Origin: a virus
Lineage: Duplodnaviria; Heunggongvirae; Uroviricota; Caudoviricetes; Demerecviridae
Direction: 5' to 3' (one strand)
Virus record (IMG/VR): IMGVR_UViG_3300042566_001359
DNA length: 27,551 bases
The notes beneath the pieces are model-generated. The model was given only the letters and a program-made list of their open reading frames with translations, ran no database searches and was not told the origin of the DNA. Every line of letters starts with the position of its first letter. Within the stretch, counting starts at the first letter, position 1. This document shows positions 67 to 10,864 of the stretch, piece by piece. The translations under genes were made by a program, and so were the position numbers.

Positions 67-364
67 ATTAGTAATTGAAGAAACAGAGTACTAGGGCAGG
101 AGTTAGTAACAGTAACACCGAGGAAGTTGGAAAGTCTATAGATCTTTCCAATCTTCCACGGTTATGTAAACTGTGTAAACTAACTCCGCTGCCCTACAAA
201 CTGCCAAAATGGCCACAAGTATTTTTAACTTTTATTAACCCATTATTGTGGTTGGAGTGGGTGCGATAACAAAAGCAATCGCCCCACCTCGACCGCTTTC
301 ATACTCTAGAACTAATCTTCTAGACCCACAACTGATCCACTTTAGGGTCAATTCACGTTAGATT

Positions 365-1378
365 ATGAACGATATTAAACTACTAGACTTTCCAGGCTTA
401 GCCAGAGACTTTCAACAAACCTACACTCAACTACGAGACGAACGATTACGGCTAGCCCAGGCTGTTGCAGAACGCCGCTATCGACAACAGTATAACCAAT
501 TGGTCCAGCAATTTTCAGGTTACGATTCGGAAGCAGGTAGTGACGGCATTGAAGAATCGGTTCGAGAATCACTGGGCGAGTTCGACCCACAAGCGGTTCA
601 ACTGCCAGAATCGGTATTACGTGAGTGTAAACACACGGCTAAGAGTAGTGTGGTTGAAGCTTGGAGTCTTAAAAACTCCCTTCCACAAAAGCTAACTTGG
701 CTGCCGCATCAGCTGTTAGCATACTTTGGCACTTGGCAGGCTGTTCGTGACGACACAGGCAAGTATAGTGCCACACTAACCTGGGATGCCAACACCAGGG
801 CTCGCGGCGACTACTACGCCTTAGGGTCGGCATTGCTGGCTACCTCCACTCGCACAAATTTTTTCAAGGATGCGCCTAAGGGTAATCAGCAGTACAAAAG
901 TGTAATCAACCCACTTGTACCAATTATCTTAGCAGGATTTAAAAAGTATCAAGGCATCAACTATTCAGATTGGAATCCAGTTGGTTTGGAAACTTTGCTA
1001 GACCCTGAATTGGCCAAGCTTGTAGGTGTTTCGGTGCCGGAACTTTCACACAGCGAATTAATTGCGCTACGCAACACTGCCCTTACAGACAAAGAAGGTG
1101 CACGAGCAGGTATCCCCAATAATCCAGCTACTTGCACCAAGCTCAATCACCTTGGTAATACGGCCATAGGTCACCTACCAAAACTTGCCAAATACATGGT
1201 ACTACAAACCTGGGCAGCACATCCCAGCAATCGTAATGAGTATATGATCTTAGACCCTAACAATTGGGATCACATTCCAGAGCCCCTGATCGGCAAAGAT
1301 ATTTTCTTGCCCAAACCACTTCAAGCCACACAACCCAGAATGGTTACCAGCTATTCGGAACTACCATGGGATGCTTGA
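365..1378 (+). CDS. T5 D2-like early protein, function unknown
   Basis: 337-aa ORF. The motifs VPIILAGFKKYQGINYSDW, LSHSELIALRN and LPKLAKYMVLQTWAAHPS resemble T5 D2 as recalled, and an A2/D3-family gene follows as in T5. Confidence 0.55.
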   Translation: MNDIKLLDFPGLARDFQQTYTQLRDERLRLAQAVAERRYRQQYNQLVQQFSGYDSEAGSDGIEESVRESLGEFDPQAVQLPESVLRECKHTAKSSVVEAWSLKNSLPQKLTWLPHQLLAYFGTWQAVRDDTGKYSATLTWDANTRARGDYYALGSALLATSTRTNFFKDAPKGNQQYKSVINPLVPIILAGFKKYQGINYSDWNPVGLETLLDPELAKLVGVSVPELSHSELIALRNTALTDKEGARAGIPNNPATCTKLNHLGNTAIGHLPKLAKYMVLQTWAAHPSNRNEYMILDPNNWDHIPEPLIGKDIFLPKPLQATQPRMVTSYSELPWDA

Positions 1379-1379
1379 A

Positions 1380-1691
1380 ATGAAATACACCAAAGAAATT
1401 TGTGACCACATGGTTCAAGCCTATAATTCAGGGGTTACGGTGCCACAGCTAGCACAGGAGCTGGACGTGCCCGAACGCAGCATAATTGCCAAGCTATCGA
1501 GCCTGGGAGTCTACCAGAAAAAGAGCTACTTAAACAAGCGTGGTGAAACGCCGGTGAAAAAGTCAGAGCACATCGAACGCATTGCCATACTCTTGAACAC
1601 CAACCTAGAATTGCTAGAATCATTAGAAAAAGTCAACAAAACTGTGCTGGTCATGATCGAACGCGCGCTCACCGACCCTAAACTGCCATAA
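1380..1691 (+). CDS. A2/D3-family DNA-binding protein (D3-like by position after D2)
   Basis: RSIIAKLSSLGVY and LESLEKVNKTVL align with the A2-like paralogues in this window. ATG 1380 sits 1 nt after the D2 stop; 1371 is an alternative start. Confidence 0.7.
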   Translation: MKYTKEICDHMVQAYNSGVTVPQLAQELDVPERSIIAKLSSLGVYQKKSYLNKRGETPVKKSEHIERIAILLNTNLELLESLEKVNKTVLVMIERALTDPKLP

Positions 1692-1727
1692 TTGCACACA
1701 ATCCGACTTAATTGACGCTACAAACGC

Positions 1728-1763
1728 AAAAGCCCCATTATCATGTGATATTGGGGCTTTTTT
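1728..1763 (+). terminator. intrinsic terminator after D2-D3
   Basis: AAAAGCCCCA-loop-TGGGGCTTTTTT. Confidence 0.8.
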
Positions 1764-1833
1764 GTTTGTGTAATTCTCATGTTCGAATTTGTCCCAAATT
1801 CGAACACGTTAGCTCTAAGTGTACGTTACTGCT

Positions 1834-1901
1834 GCACTTGTTGCAGCTTAGGGTCATACAACACCTAAAGAATCTTTAGCACTTGTTGCAGCTTAGGGTC
1901 A
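1834..1901. repeat. 23-bp exact direct repeat, two copies
   Basis: GCACTTGTTGCAGCTTAGGGTCA at 1834-1856 and 1879-1901, 22-bp spacer. Confidence 0.9.
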
Positions 1902-1921
1902 GTACTCACAAGAATCCACAC

Positions 1922-1958
1922 TTGACAACAAAGGTTCTGCACTGGTATAATTTGGCGC
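1922..1958 (+). promoter_or_regulatory. GGCGC-type + strand promoter, copy 1
   Basis: TTGACA(1922-27)-18-TATAAT(1946-51)-TTGGCGC, with TGn extension. Confidence 0.75.
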
Positions 1959-2007
1959 AGACCGCAACAGACTAGGTGTAAAAATGTCGAGCTGACCAAA
2001 ACACCCA

Positions 2008-2046
2008 AAACAAAAGCCCCAAGAGTAGCTAACTCTTGGGGCTTTT
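2008..2046. terminator. strong bidirectional intrinsic terminator
   Basis: 15-bp perfect arms AAAAGCCCCAAGAGT/ACTCTTGGGGCTTTT with a 5-nt loop. On the - strand it is followed by UUUUGUUUU. Confidence 0.85.
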
Positions 2047-2276
2047 GAACAATCACGAGTGCACTCGCTGTTAGTTTTTAGTCTCACACGACGACTTACT
2101 GGGGGTACCACCCACGCTAACTGCATCGACCCTAAACTGGAGCACGGTCGCAGGGCATTAGGTTATTGCCTGTGTAGCTCTAGCAGGGGAGAAAGTATTG
2201 GTTCGGCTCTTCAGCCCACCACACGGTTTACGACACTGGGCTTTGTCGACTGCTATAGATTAACGACTGTTGCAGT

Positions 2277-2406
2277 TCGGGGTCGGGTGCTACGGTTCCA
2301 GCGCATGCACCACTTTTAGCGACTCGGGGTCGGGTGCTCCAGTCGAAGCTTTTGCACCACTTTTAACGACTTAGGGTCGAGTGCTCAGTTTGCGATAAGC
2401 ACCACT
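2277..2406. repeat. 47-bp-period repeat: 32-bp hairpin-forming units with 13-15-bp variable spacers
   Basis: GCACCACTTTTARCGACTYRGGGTCGRGTGCT at 2307-2338 and 2354-2385; partial copies at 2277-2291 and 2399-2406. Confidence 0.85.
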
Positions 2407-2649
2407 CAGGGGCCATTTAACGACAATCCGTGTCGGGCCACATTAACGAGGGCCAAGCTCGGGTACGTAAGTGCACCAGGCTGCCAAGACCATTTTACGT
2501 CGGTACCAGATAAGACGGCAGTTTATATAGTAACTGCTCACTAGGCTTACTCATTTCCAGCTAATCACTTTCAGTGGTGGGTCCATCCGGTTTTCGCTTT
2601 CGCTACTAGGCTTCAAGAGTCAGTCACATCCCGGTTTCGCTGGGTTTTC

Positions 2650-2751
2650 ATCCTGACCCTAAGGTACGGCAAGCGGTGATGTGGGAAAATCACGCACACT
2701 TGCTGTGAGGCCTTAAGGTTTCGCACAACTTGCATGTGCTCATCAGAGGGT
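2650..2751 (-). ncRNA. candidate type I hammerhead ribozyme
   Basis: Minus strand: ACCCU-CUGAUGA-GCACA(UGCAAGU)UGUGC-GAA-ACCUUAAGG[46 nt]CCUUAGGGU-C/AGGAU. This gives an intact core, a G-C closed stem II, a 9-bp stem III, a GUC cleavage triplet and a short stem I. Confidence 0.65.
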
Positions 2752-2965
2752 TGGTATCGCATACGGGTAACGATCCCGTCTAGGTACCTTGAAAGGGTAC
2801 TGACCTCACCTGAAGTCGAATGCGATATGTTAAATTAGCCACGCAGGTATTTTACTACTTACCATACGGAACATCGTCCAGATATTACGGGCTAAAAAGG
2901 TTGGGCTGCGACTAGAGTTTGTTCGGTCGCAATCAAGTTGTTATCCCAGCATCGAGTGCTGAGCC

Positions 2966-3323
2966 TCATAACACCCATAAGTTAATCGGCCAACGTAATG
3001 GTCCACACTCAAATCGTAGATATAGGATGCGTAAGCTAAGTTTTCTGGCTTAAAGGTTGCTGCCTTTCCATACTTCGCCGCTTACTCCAACAGAGCCTAT
3101 CGCCGTAACAATTATAGTTGCGCTACTAGATTACTGCCACCAGCAAGTAGCTGGCCGATTAACTTATGGATTCATAACACCCATAATAAAGTACCCAGCA
3201 AATTCTTGCAGAGTTGCAGCATTCTACCACTTTCGCCGTCTCGGCCGAGACCTACCGGTGGGGTTAATCTGCATACATCTAACAAGCAAACCAGGCTAGC
3301 ACTGTCTGGGTACTTTATTATGG
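2966..3323. repeat. two adjacent 18-bp perfect inverted-repeat pairs plus a 15-bp direct repeat
   Basis: 2975-2992/3152-3169 (CCATAAGTTAATCGGCCA) and 3181-3198/3306-3323 (CCATAATAAAGTACCCAG). TCATAACACCCATAA at 2966-2980 and 3172-3186. Confidence 0.9.
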
Positions 3324-3411
3324 ACACTAAGGGCTGTGGCTCGGTTCCCGAAGGTATTCCCCACAATTAAGACGCTGCTTGACGCGACCGCTGTCACCCA
3401 ATCTATACTAT

Positions 3412-3441
3412 ATTATAACATACAACAGTTAACATAATCAA
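3412..3441 (-). promoter_or_regulatory. sigma70 promoter at the head of the ncRNA candidate
   Basis: Minus strand TTGATT-18-TATAAT with TGn extension; +1 about 3405. Confidence 0.7.
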
Positions 3442-3483
3442 GATAATATTTAGTAGCCTTGTTAACTGCTGTTGTCTTATCGC

Positions 3484-3525
3484 TTTCTAAGTATATATTA
3501 TATCAAACTCAATTAACAAAATCAA
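3484..3525 (-). promoter_or_regulatory. sigma70 promoter, no ATG ORF downstream
   Basis: TTGATT-17-TATAAT. The -10/leader GATATAATATATACTTAGAAA is identical to that of the 3679-3720 promoter. Confidence 0.7.
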
Positions 3526-3678
3526 CAAAAGAATTCCAATCGTTTCCTCAAGACTAGCTTCGCAGGTGTGTCGACGTACAGTGACTGGTTAGTGATTGCG
3601 GCTGCTGAGGCAGAACTGGCACCGGTTGATTAATCACACGGTATTCATTAAGCCATTCCCGACTGGGTTCTTTGTTAA

Positions 3679-3720
3679 TTTCTAAGTATATATTATATCG
3701 CGAAATGGGTCACAGATCAA
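3679..3720 (-). promoter_or_regulatory. sigma70 promoter, no ATG ORF downstream
   Basis: TTGATC-17-TATAAT, with the same 21-nt -10/leader as 3484-3504. Confidence 0.7.
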
Positions 3721-3743
3721 GTGTAGATTTTGTGACCCTAAAC

Positions 3744-4055
3744 TTAAGCAAGTTCTGCAACCAGACGCTCAAGCACTTCGTGGTTGGCCTTTTCCAGGCT
3801 TTCAAACACTTCTGGAGCAACGCCGCAGGCAAGTGCCAGCTTGTCCACCAGTTCGGCTTTACGCACACGGTGTTGGCCGGTGGCCTTGGTTTTGGCCACG
3901 TACACGCCTTCGCGGCTGAGTTTGGCCACTACACTGCGTACGGTTTTGCCCAGGGTCTCGGCCAGTTGTTCCACGGTCTTGCCCGACTGGTAGCCTGTGA
4001 CGAGTTCCACGGTTTGCTCGGGAGTGTAGTTTTGAGGGGTTGCTTTAGTCATCAT
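3744..4055 (-). CDS. A2-like pre-early DNA-binding protein, paralogue 1
   Basis: NYTPEQT...GKTVRSVVAKLSREGVYVAKT...ESLEKAN. RBS AAAGGA before ATGATG (4055/4052). The longer ORF from 4331 is upstream read-through. Confidence 0.8.
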   Translation of the reverse strand: MMTKATPQNYTPEQTVELVTGYQSGKTVEQLAETLGKTVRSVVAKLSREGVYVAKTKATGQHRVRKAELVDKLALACGVAPEVFESLEKANHEVLERLVAELA

Positions 4056-4092
4056 ATGTCCTTTGGTTGGTTTCTGCGCTGTTGAAGATTCT

Positions 4093-4121
4093 ATTATACG
4101 TGAATCAGAAGGGAACATCAA
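4093..4121 (-). promoter_or_regulatory. pre-early-type promoter
   Basis: TTGATG-17-TATAAT-AGAATCTTCAAC. The leader is shared with the promoter at 5594-5621. Confidence 0.75.
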
Positions 4122-4236
4122 GATCAAAATTTTCGTCTTGAGTGGTAGTATCACAAAACATTTCCGATAGTTCCGCATCCACAAATTCATCGAATGCCGC
4201 ATACTGATACGCTGTGAAAAATTCGTTTGTTGCCAT
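4105..4236 (-). CDS. 43-aa acidic microprotein ending in DLDVPF
   Basis: Hand-translated MATNEFFTAYQYAAFDEFVDAELSEMFCDTTTQDENFDLDVPF. RBS AGGAG and its own promoter TTGCAG-17-TATAAT (4264-4292). Confidence 0.7.
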   Translation of the reverse strand: MATNEFFTAYQYAAFDEFVDAELSEMFCDTTTQDENFDLDVPF

Positions 4237-4308
4237 CTGCCGTTATCTCCTGTTGATGTAATAATTATACAAAACTTGGACACTTGCTGCAATATCAAAA
4301 ATTTCGTC

Positions 4309-4345
4309 TTGACACTGTAAAGCTTTTGCACTTATAATTTGGCGC
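4309..4345 (+). promoter_or_regulatory. GGCGC-type + strand promoter, copy 2
   Basis: TTGACA(4309-14)-18-TATAAT(4333-38)-TTGGCGC, followed by degenerate TTTTGCACTT...TGGCGCA repeats to about 4430. Confidence 0.7.
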
Positions 4346-4779: not shown

Positions 4780-5025
4780 TTAAATAAATGCGGATCTGGG
4801 GATTTTAACCAATTGATTGAGATAATCAATCTCCCATTCATAATGGGCGAATGTCTCATAATCATAATCACCAGTCATTGCCAGCAAATAATCGGCGGCA
4901 ATATTAATATAGTTTGGCCGAATTTTGGAGAATGGCAAACCATTATAATCGCTTGGATTAATATCTAATTGGCAAAATGTGAGAATCACGGGTTTATCGG
5001 CAAAACTTGGCAAATTGAAAAGCAT
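4780..5025 (-). CDS. hypothetical 81-aa protein (MLFNLPSF...)
   Basis: RBS GAGGA 8 nt before ATG 5025, directly after the stop of the 5027-5164 ORF. Confidence 0.65.
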   Translation of the reverse strand: MLFNLPSFADKPVILTFCQLDINPSDYNGLPFSKIRPNYINIAADYLLAMTGDYDYETFAHYEWEIDYLNQLVKIPRSAFI

Positions 5026-8373: not shown

Positions 8374-8850
8374 TTAGTGACCTTGTTTGCTTGGAACATA
8401 AACCCCGCGAATATTAAAGCGATCACAAACCGCTTTTAAATAAGTGGTATTATCCTCATAAAATGTAAATTCAGCATCACGGAAATTCTTTAAATTAAAG
8501 AATTTAGCCAAACCCGCAATTTTGAGTTTACCGCCTGAAGTAGTATCACCATCACAACGACTGATAATATAATCAGGCTCACCCAAAACAGTTTTAATAA
8601 ACTCATTATCAGCATCACGCAAAACTCGCGCAGTGGCAATAATCACAAAAGTATTATCGTCTTGCAAATCTTTACGATATTGGGATGCTAATGGCAATAA
8701 TGAATCATCCATTGCACGATATTCATTCTGTCTCCAATAATCCAAATCAATACGTTCGCCATTATCGTCAACGATTGTACGATATCTGTGCAAACTGCAA
8801 ACAATAGTACCATCCATATCGTAAATCGAAACCTTTGTGATCTTAGCCAT
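8374..8850 (-). CDS. dmp: HAD-family deoxynucleoside-5'-monophosphatase (T5 Dmp-like)
   Basis: HAD motifs YDMDGT, ATAR, K, YEDN. The N-terminus ITKVSIYDMDGTIVCSLHR...DSLLPL...NTFVIIATAR parallels T5 Dmp as recalled. RBS AAGGA. Confidence 0.8.
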   Translation of the reverse strand: MAKITKVSIYDMDGTIVCSLHRYRTIVDDNGERIDLDYWRQNEYRAMDDSLLPLASQYRKDLQDDNTFVIIATARVLRDADNEFIKTVLGEPDYIISRCDGDTTSGGKLKIAGLAKFFNLKNFRDAEFTFYEDNTTYLKAVCDRFNIRGVYVPSKQGH

Positions 8851-10602: not shown

Positions 10603-10864
10603 GGGTTTATTATATCATGCTTTTGCAGTTGGTCAACAGTTTAATTGAACTGTTACAAACTGTTACATGTTAGCTAGTTGGTTCACAAATCTGTTAGGAA
10701 ACAAAAGTACTCATATTATAGTAGGTTTACAAACAAACTGACTAGGGGCGGTTAGTAGACTAAAGTTTACACATACGCCGTGGCACCCACCCACACGCGG
10801 CCTATGGGGTAAAAATCCCAAAACCATCTGGGTGCCGTACCATGCCTCAGCCGACCCTAAACCG

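Follow-up and report, generated by a model that had tools for sequence, protein, structure and literature searches.

Hammerhead ribozymes have been known in phage genomes since 2011 (PMC3088659), and phage hammerheads have already been proposed to process long transcripts (PMC3088659). HDV-like theta ribozymes adjoin phage tRNAs and have been proposed to free them (Kienbeck et al. 2024, PMC10879173). A further comparison is offered by GOLLD and ROOL which, like the RNA described here, are large, conserved, structured non-coding phage RNAs. GOLLD and ROOL often adjoin tRNA genes. The RNA described here differs from both in being bipartite, with an internal hammerhead for which self-cleavage is predicted. 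To our knowledge, almost no phage hammerhead has an assigned job.

The locus lies in a 27,551-nt stretch of DNA (the window) from a virus assigned to the Demerecviridae (IMG/VR record IMGVR_UViG_3300042566_001359). The window comes from a distant T5-like phage, whose large terminase is ~50% identical to those of Vibrio T5-like phages (~113–118 kb) and whose pre-early-type genes lie on the minus (-) strand. We consider it likely that the locus carries a genuine type I hammerhead belonging to a conserved non-coding RNA gene of an uncultured T5-like clade (~100-kb genomes), and that the ribozyme splits the transcript of this gene into separate RNAs. It has the same core, three-helix junction, open stem I and NUH triplet as the type I hammerheads (Perreault et al. 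2011, PMC3088659; Hammerhead_1 and the rest of its clan), and like those of Perreault et al. it resides in a phage genome. It differs from known type I hammerheads in the traits that mark the family as a whole, namely a short stem I of 3–5 bp, with no recognisable loop-loop or pseudoknot contact, and a covarying, conserved two-tier extension of stem III, of ~46 nt. In contrast to known phage hammerheads, it does not flank protein genes, but sits at the fixed junction of a two-domain non-coding RNA. The interesting part is this setting: the ribozyme marks a fixed point between the two parts of a conserved phage RNA, at which a tRNA-Glu may or may not be present. To judge from its sequence, the ribozyme appears to be an invariant junction of a conserved and strongly promoted two-domain RNA, beside the genes that are expressed first after DNA entry.

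The hammerhead motif and its relation to described models

The ribozyme occupies positions 2751–2650 of the minus strand, in an ORF-free stretch. The first-pass annotation had placed the elements of a hammerhead here, and every one of them is present at the positions given there; the whole core and all stems can be read directly in the sequence. The 5′ strand of stem I, ACCCU (2747–2751), begins one base past a tRNA CCA and is followed by the core box C3-U4-G5-A6-U7-G8-A9 (CUGAUGA, 2740–2746). Stem II (2723–2739) pairs GCACA with UGUGC over 5 bp (2739–2735 with 2727–2723) and is closed by the 7-nt loop UGCAAGU. The GAAA at 2719–2722 supplies G12-A13-A14 plus A15.1, the last of which pairs with U2656. 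Stem III (2656–2719, including its extension) has 9 bp, ACCUUAAGG/CCUUAGGGU, with one G-U pair (2719–2711 with 2664–2656). The 46-nt insert that extends it (2710–2665) had been described as a hairpin, and in the local fold it does take this form, as two stacked hairpins that make up the two tiers. The hammerhead consensus puts the predicted cleavage site, after a GUC triplet, between C17 (2655) and A1.1 (2654). The 3′ strand of stem I, AGGAU (2650–2654), would provide the first bases of the predicted 3′ product; the conserved GAAAACCC comes next. In the window, stem I consists of three Watson-Crick pairs, then a C.A mismatch, then one A-U pair; the single mismatch noted earlier in ACCCU/AGGAU is this C-A.

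A bare hammerhead sequence pattern is expected 0.10 times per window of this composition. When a descriptor was used that requires all three stems, there was one match in the window and none in 300 dinucleotide-preserving shuffles, and the motif in the window is not due to chance. Compared to shuffles, the local fold of the ribozyme region shows a modest gain (z = -1.8). As far as sequence can speak to it, support for a hammerhead comes from the comparative data presented below, and not from a database match or from folding energy.

The first-pass annotation had also proposed a cmsearch with the Rfam hammerhead models. This gave no match in the window, either at gathering thresholds or at E <= 10, including when the 141-nt slice containing the core was searched, and at gathering thresholds there was no hammerhead match in 14 relatives. 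Across the window, the 141-nt core region, these 14 relatives and the RNA regions of two relatives, only tRNAs scored above threshold in Rfam. One relative, L150, gave a partial match to Hammerhead_3 (21 bits, compared to a threshold of 48.5) and a match to RAGATH-1-hammerhead (17 bits, threshold 56). This shortfall is a property of the models, and not a defining trait of the hammerhead class. As no Rfam model reaches its threshold, we read the ribozyme as an apparently orthodox type I hammerhead that is uncatalogued. A family missed by the current Rfam models is useful for the design of better hammerhead searches.

Conservation, covariation and distribution

The motif, its conservation and covariation, its fixed syntenic position and its copy number are all matters of direct observation. 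Relatives were gathered by exact and degenerate pattern scans of IMG/VR, and a 20-sequence alignment was structured by hand and used to build a covariance model. In this alignment, pairing is 81.6% compared to 68.9% in shuffles, and the covariation score is 0.359 compared to 0.160; none of 500 shuffles reached the observed value, and pairing in slid registers was 32–42%. Searched against the window, the model recovers the ribozyme copy at 123 bits and finds no other significant match. Each of 31 viral contigs from the pattern search contains a single match, and overall the model detects the ribozyme once per contig in ~45 contigs of uncultured T5-like viruses.

Pattern scans presuppose the core that they find. 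For this reason, 52 loci were fetched solely through the protein encoded upstream of the RNA, an A2/D3-like DNA-binding protein (gene at 3744–4331, minus strand). The covariance model matches 45 of these 52 loci, and in the matched loci the match mostly starts ~350–770 nt past the end of the match to the gene. In three of them (L161, L164 and L166) the ribozyme instead lies ~3.2–3.6 kb downstream of the flanking gene. Six of the seven loci without a match end too soon after the gene for a ribozyme to be anticipated, and the seventh, L165, has protein-coding sequence after the flanking gene instead.

Conservation of the core was counted on 32 distinct full-length rows from the loci fetched via the flanking protein. 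Eleven positions (C3, U4, G5, A6, G8, A9, G12, A13, A14, A15.1 and U16.1) are invariant in all 32 rows, which bears out the earlier statement that the core matches the hammerhead consensus. The A15.1-U16.1 pair is present in 37/37 rows. In the hammerhead consensus, N7 is free and H17 can be any base but G. The core positions that vary among our rows are exactly these two: N7 is U in 28 and C in 4 of the 32 rows, and A in L146, while H17 is C in 28 and A in 4, giving a triplet of GUC or GUA and never a G. Homologues that lose the core nucleotides but keep the flanks had been named as an observation that would speak against a hammerhead; we see the opposite, as the core is kept in loci that were fetched via the flanking protein.

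A larger alignment, which was fitted to the covariance model and so leans towards the structure, has 82.6% of its cells paired compared to 63.4% in shuffles, with double changes in 29 of 33 pairs. None of 500 shuffles reached the observed values on any of five measures, and slid registers gave 34–39% pairing; the smaller, hand-structured alignment agrees. In stem I, CCU/AGG is nearly invariant, with the compensatory variants UCCA/UGGA, CCCU/AGGG and ACCUU/AAGGU (the last in L146). The pair adjoining the core (2.1/1.1) is U-A in 33 rows and A-U in 4, pair 2.4/1.4 is U-A in 16 rows and C-G in 3, with C.A also occurring, and the stem also shows compensatory changes from C-G to U-A. Three positions of stem II have changes on both sides, beneath a loop with the consensus U-G-N-A-A-K-U. 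In stem III, double changes are seen in 6 of 9 pairs, and among the relatives in 14 of 14 pairs of the extension. At the level of sequence variation, all three helices around the core are backed by covariation, stems II and III strongly.

Three relatives (L136, L137 and L146) give only weak matches to the covariance model, yet the 5′ core box is present in each (CUGACGA, CUGAUGA and CUGAAGA, respectively). They carry a large module inserted in loop II, with the core and stem II kept. The inserted module, GACCCUAAAC - hairpin - GUUUUAAAU, lies at 4980–5085 in L136, at 5127–5261 in L137 and at about 5115–5190 in L146, and it is of the same kind as modules repeated in the 3′ domain of the window (about 2445–2228). 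The module behaves like a mobile RNA building block. As a separate observation, L161, L164 and L166, which are the most divergent ribozyme-bearing phages and have the cleavage triplet GUA, carry arrays of 4–10 tRNA genes a few kb upstream of the ribozyme (1535–3218, 33–781 and 184–881, respectively).

Among five near-complete genomes (~100 kb), four have a single copy of the ribozyme; in the fifth, a copy lies at either end of the contig, probably as an end effect. This fifth genome, the 100-kb contig G002, carries non-identical copies of the whole unit at its two ends. We also see three independent contigs (L005, L007 and L008) that end 850–940 nt downstream of the ribozyme. The RNA gene may adjoin a genome terminus or a terminal-repeat boundary.

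No copy of the locus outside this clade was found among the phage genomes and the listed bacterial matches examined. Against 50,697 GenBank phages, BLAST of the 2-kb region gave matches only to the tRNA and tblastn of the flanking protein gave no match, so no cultured phage with the locus was found in this set. The covariance model has no match in T5 or in Vibrio phage D419. A pattern scan of GTDB gave at least 119 matches; none of 80 loci among the matches listed scores with the covariance model, so these are taken to be chance matches. Sequence look-ups returned only T5-like relatives.

A two-domain RNA gene and its predicted cleavage

The ribozyme lies between a promoter (3441–3412) and a terminator (2047–2011) that bound a predicted transcript of ~1.4 kb on the minus strand. 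The promoter is of the sigma-70 type, TTGATT-18-TATAAT with TG, and is the last of three stacked promoters, with a predicted start near 3405. Together with the conserved transcript start GGGYGACAGCGG, it is also found in the distant relatives L136 and L146. The 5′ RNA domain (2827–3405) opens with the start motif GGGUGACAGCGG, contains an insert of ~190 nt, and closes with a 3′ hairpin ending GCCCAAC; its blocks are conserved across relatives. The stem of this closing hairpin changes completely between relatives and stays paired, and is then followed by GCCCA(A/C)C. The 3′ RNA domain (2048–2649), also conserved across relatives, has a conserved core GGAAAUGAGUAAGCCUAGUGAGC...CUAUAU and repeated hairpin modules of the CGACCCUAAGUCGUUAAAAG type, and several of its hairpins covary in the sister clade. 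It ends at an intrinsic terminator (2011–2047) with a 16-bp stem and then a U-tract, whose position is conserved in relatives. Relatives thus share blocks on both sides of the ribozyme, and the RNA-level covariation seen both upstream and downstream indicates that the ribozyme joins two structured RNA domains.

Neither domain, in the window or in relatives, matches an Rfam family at gathering or permissive thresholds, and the GOLLD and ROOL covariance models likewise have no match in the window or relatives at either setting. Duplex searches gave no consistently placed long-range partner for the conserved 5′ end GGGUGACAGCGG; a possible partner, GUCRCC-GCCC just upstream of the ribozyme, is suggestive. 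A minimum-energy fold of the full-length RNA was judged to be uninformative.

The closest relatives, L008 and L010, lack the ~190-nt insert of the 5′ domain (about 2980–3172, minus strand), and in them the blocks on either side of it abut. It consists of a long perfect hairpin domain bounded by repeated UUAUGGGUGUUAUGA, and is a lineage-specific insertion. Two further features lie close to the gene. Behind the first of the stacked promoters (3720–3692) there is a separate short unit (about 3530–3685, minus strand), starting ...CAGUCGGGAA, the beginning of which is conserved in L136 and L146; it may encode a small RNA that precedes the main transcript. On the plus strand, a promoter of perfect consensus (12/12 with TG, 1922–1951) points into the shared terminator at 2011–2047, antisense to the 3′ end of the RNA gene.

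From this arrangement we infer how the gene would be transcribed and cleaved, which chemistry the new ends would have, and what the products may do. Transcription of the minus strand would run from strong host-type promoters, just downstream of the A2/D3-like pre-early gene, to the intrinsic terminator. The canonical core would be assembled by stems II and III together with the short stem I while the ribozyme emerges, and self-cleavage after C2655 would be co-transcriptional. The 5′ product would comprise the 5′ domain and the tRNA-Glu together with nearly all of the ribozyme, and would end in a 2′,3′-cyclic phosphate. The 3′ product, of ~645 nt, would begin with a 5′-hydroxyl at AGGAUGAAAACCC and run to the terminator. 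As it would be held by the 3–5 bp of stem I only, the 3′ product should dissociate at once, making the cut effectively irreversible. In this way the ribozyme would serve as a fixed punctuation mark between two independently folded RNA domains made from one promoter. The first-pass annotation had pictured a hammerhead midway in a long non-coding transcript, and this picture holds up well: the motif is real, conserved and covarying, and cleavage would be expected to give pieces of ~750 and ~650 nt.

In the RNA decay pathways of E. coli, a 5′-hydroxyl or a cyclic phosphate is poorly suited to 5′-monophosphate-dependent entry of RNase E, to 3′ exonucleases and to polyadenylation. The ends made by the ribozyme would accordingly be predicted to slow decay of both products. 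The locus offers a clean system for studying the effect of ribozyme-made ends (5′-hydroxyl and cyclic phosphate) on the stability and assembly of bacterial RNA, as well as a handle for isolating two long phage RNAs. More tentatively, it is possible that the hammerhead is an obligatory maturation step of an undescribed class of large bipartite phage RNA, resembling GOLLD and ROOL in size and conservation. The 3′ domain of ~650 nt with its 5′-hydroxyl, and the 5′ domain with its cyclic phosphate, might then act early in infection as separate stabilised RNAs or as a non-covalent complex. The tRNA-Glu might have been recruited for a linked purpose, for example to replace or decoy a host tRNA-Glu under attack.

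The main question for the proposed scheme is how readily the ribozyme would cleave. Fast natural hammerheads need a tertiary contact that aligns stems I and II, in the form of a loop-loop or loop-bulge interaction or a pseudoknot. Neither in the window nor in its relatives did we recognise a loop-loop or pseudoknot interaction capable of stabilising stems I and II, and with stem I being very short, fast cleavage at physiological Mg2+ is not assured. The conserved loop II, an invariant AA 5′ of stem I and a conserved GAAA 3′ of stem I may be candidate partners for a tertiary contact, with no convincing covariation linking them.

These features are what an alternative reading would build upon, in which the hammerhead fold is conserved while cleavage in vivo is slow, conditional or absent, so that the ribozyme would mainly hold one long RNA together as a structural junction, or would act as a switch, with cutting dependent on a partner (a protein, other parts of the RNA or high Mg2+) that stabilises the stem I/stem II arrangement. 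The 3–5 bp stem I without a detected tertiary contact fits such a role, and additional contacts, beyond those of a minimal ribozyme, are suggested by three conserved features: the extension of stem III, an invariant AA that is unpaired and precedes stem I, and GAAA(A)CCC on the 3′ side of stem I. There is also precedent, as some natural hammerhead candidates were inactive in vitro, and regulated cleavage has been discussed for phage hammerheads (Perreault et al., PMC3088659). However, a purely structural role would not fix eleven catalytic nucleotides and leave only N7 and H17 free to vary, nor would it preserve the core across the large insertions in loop II. We therefore regard slow, conditional or absent cleavage as unlikely, and favour a ribozyme that splits its transcript.

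The tRNA-Glu at the junction and a repeated 8-mer

Directly 5′ of the ribozyme, the window encodes a tRNA-Glu(UUC) with an encoded CCA (2752–2826, minus strand; ARAGORN), which the first-pass annotation had overlooked. Its CCA ends one base before stem I. The tRNA is atypical, with a T-loop of AUCGUUA and a U at position 14, and it falls below the Rfam tRNA threshold, which the copies in relatives exceed. Its minimum-energy fold is a cloverleaf (z = -3.1), and the acceptor stem covaries when compared to relatives; the tRNA may have specialised or be in decay. Seven lineages have a tRNA at this place, between the 5′ domain and the ribozyme, and in each of them it is tRNA-Glu(UUC). Most members of the family lack it, including the closest relatives L008 and L010, in which the flanks are 80–90% identical and the 5′ domain leads directly to the ribozyme. 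In the sister clade, the ribozyme is likewise kept and the tRNA-Glu is missing throughout.

The presence of the tRNA at 2826–2752 changes the predicted products, as RNase P would cut the 5′ piece again. Wherever the tRNA is present, this second cut would yield the 5′ domain and a unit of ~172 nt, comprising the tRNA plus the ribozyme, which would still need host 3′ trimming. The simplest reading is that the junction is a processing point at which the tRNA supplies a second, RNase P-dependent cut. The tRNA-Glu itself is an optional passenger at the junction.

It could instead be argued that the ribozyme is primarily a tRNA-processing device, which frees the tRNA-Glu. Theta ribozymes beside phage tRNAs offer a precedent, in that they, too, are small self-cleaving ribozymes that directly follow a phage tRNA gene, and are proposed to release the tRNA (Kienbeck et al. 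2024, PMC10879173). In keeping with such a device, only one base separates the CCA from the start of the ribozyme in the window, L120/L121, L122 and L147, the ribozyme of L162 begins a few bases after the tRNA, and the tRNA is always tRNA-Glu(UUC). However, theta ribozymes are a different class and cut at the tRNA 3′ end (PMC10879173), whereas the cut of the hammerhead would fall at its own 3′ terminus, 97 nt past the CCA, so that the tRNA would keep the entire ribozyme as a structured trailer, which would be expected to end in a cyclic phosphate. The tRNA association also differs from that of theta ribozymes in that the tRNA is missing from most family members, and neither the cut at the tRNA 3′ end nor the steady co-occurrence with a tRNA that characterise the theta type is seen here. 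In L119 and L135, moreover, the tRNA-Glu lies ~90 nt upstream of the ribozyme, with a 90-nt spacer between them. The hammerhead is therefore not a tRNA end-maker of the theta type, and with the ribozyme kept without a tRNA in most members, including L008/L010 and the entire sister clade, we find a primary role in freeing tRNA-Glu quite improbable. The preferred reading remains a ribozyme that separates two RNA domains, with the tRNA as an addition in some lineages.

Finding the tRNA also altered the interpretation of a competing fold that had been suggested to regulate the ribozyme, in which GUGAGG (2809–2804) pairs with CCUCAC (2710–2705). The GUGAGG lies within the D-arm of the tRNA-Glu, and the pairing is not conserved: L008 and L010 keep CCUCAC and have neither tRNA nor GUGAGG in the 110 nt upstream of the ribozyme, and most other relatives differ in sequence at the CCUCAC position. 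A second alternative pairing, between ACCCU of stem I and AGGGU of stem III, does not survive in L139-type variants and is thus not under selection.

The cleavage site coincides with a repeated sequence. The 8-mer GACCCTAA/TTAGGGTC occurs 12 times in the window, compared to 0.62 expected copies. Ten of the 12 copies fall within 342–3741, with the others at 10853 and 18506, and they are found on both strands, inside genes as well as in the RNA region. One copy comprises the 3′ strand of stem III plus the cleavage site. The first four pairs of stem III and the GGGUC are conserved beyond catalytic need and coincide with this 8-mer, so part of their conservation may have another cause, at the level of the DNA or of a module. 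The 8-mer could be a binding site for a regulator or a recurring RNA module. A reading in which the entire region is conserved as DNA, being repeat-rich, protein-binding or similar to an injection stop, with the hammerhead likeness a coincidence, could draw on the excess of this 8-mer across the cleavage site, on the non-coding injection-stop region annotated beside the pre-early genes of T5 and on the several contigs that end 850–940 nt beyond the ribozyme, but it is disfavoured and seems very improbable to us, given that compensatory changes keep strand-specific RNA helices (including G-U pairs), that the pattern of invariance fits the catalytic rules of the hammerhead position by position, that conserved promoters and a conserved terminator frame the region, and that T5 has no match to the covariance model.

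Finally, the near-complete genomes were surveyed for enzymes that act on RNA ends. In the five genomes, the search gave neither an RtcB nor an RNA ligase scoring above the family cut-off; circularisation or religation by phage enzymes is therefore without support. A 158-aa protein encoded at 8374–8850 (minus strand) matches PHROG 415 (‘polynucleotide kinase’) with E = 2.7e-10, and gave no Pfam or PDB match. This PHROG 415-like protein is present in all five near-complete related genomes, where it is 70–95% identical and encoded ~3.7–5.6 kb from the RNA gene.
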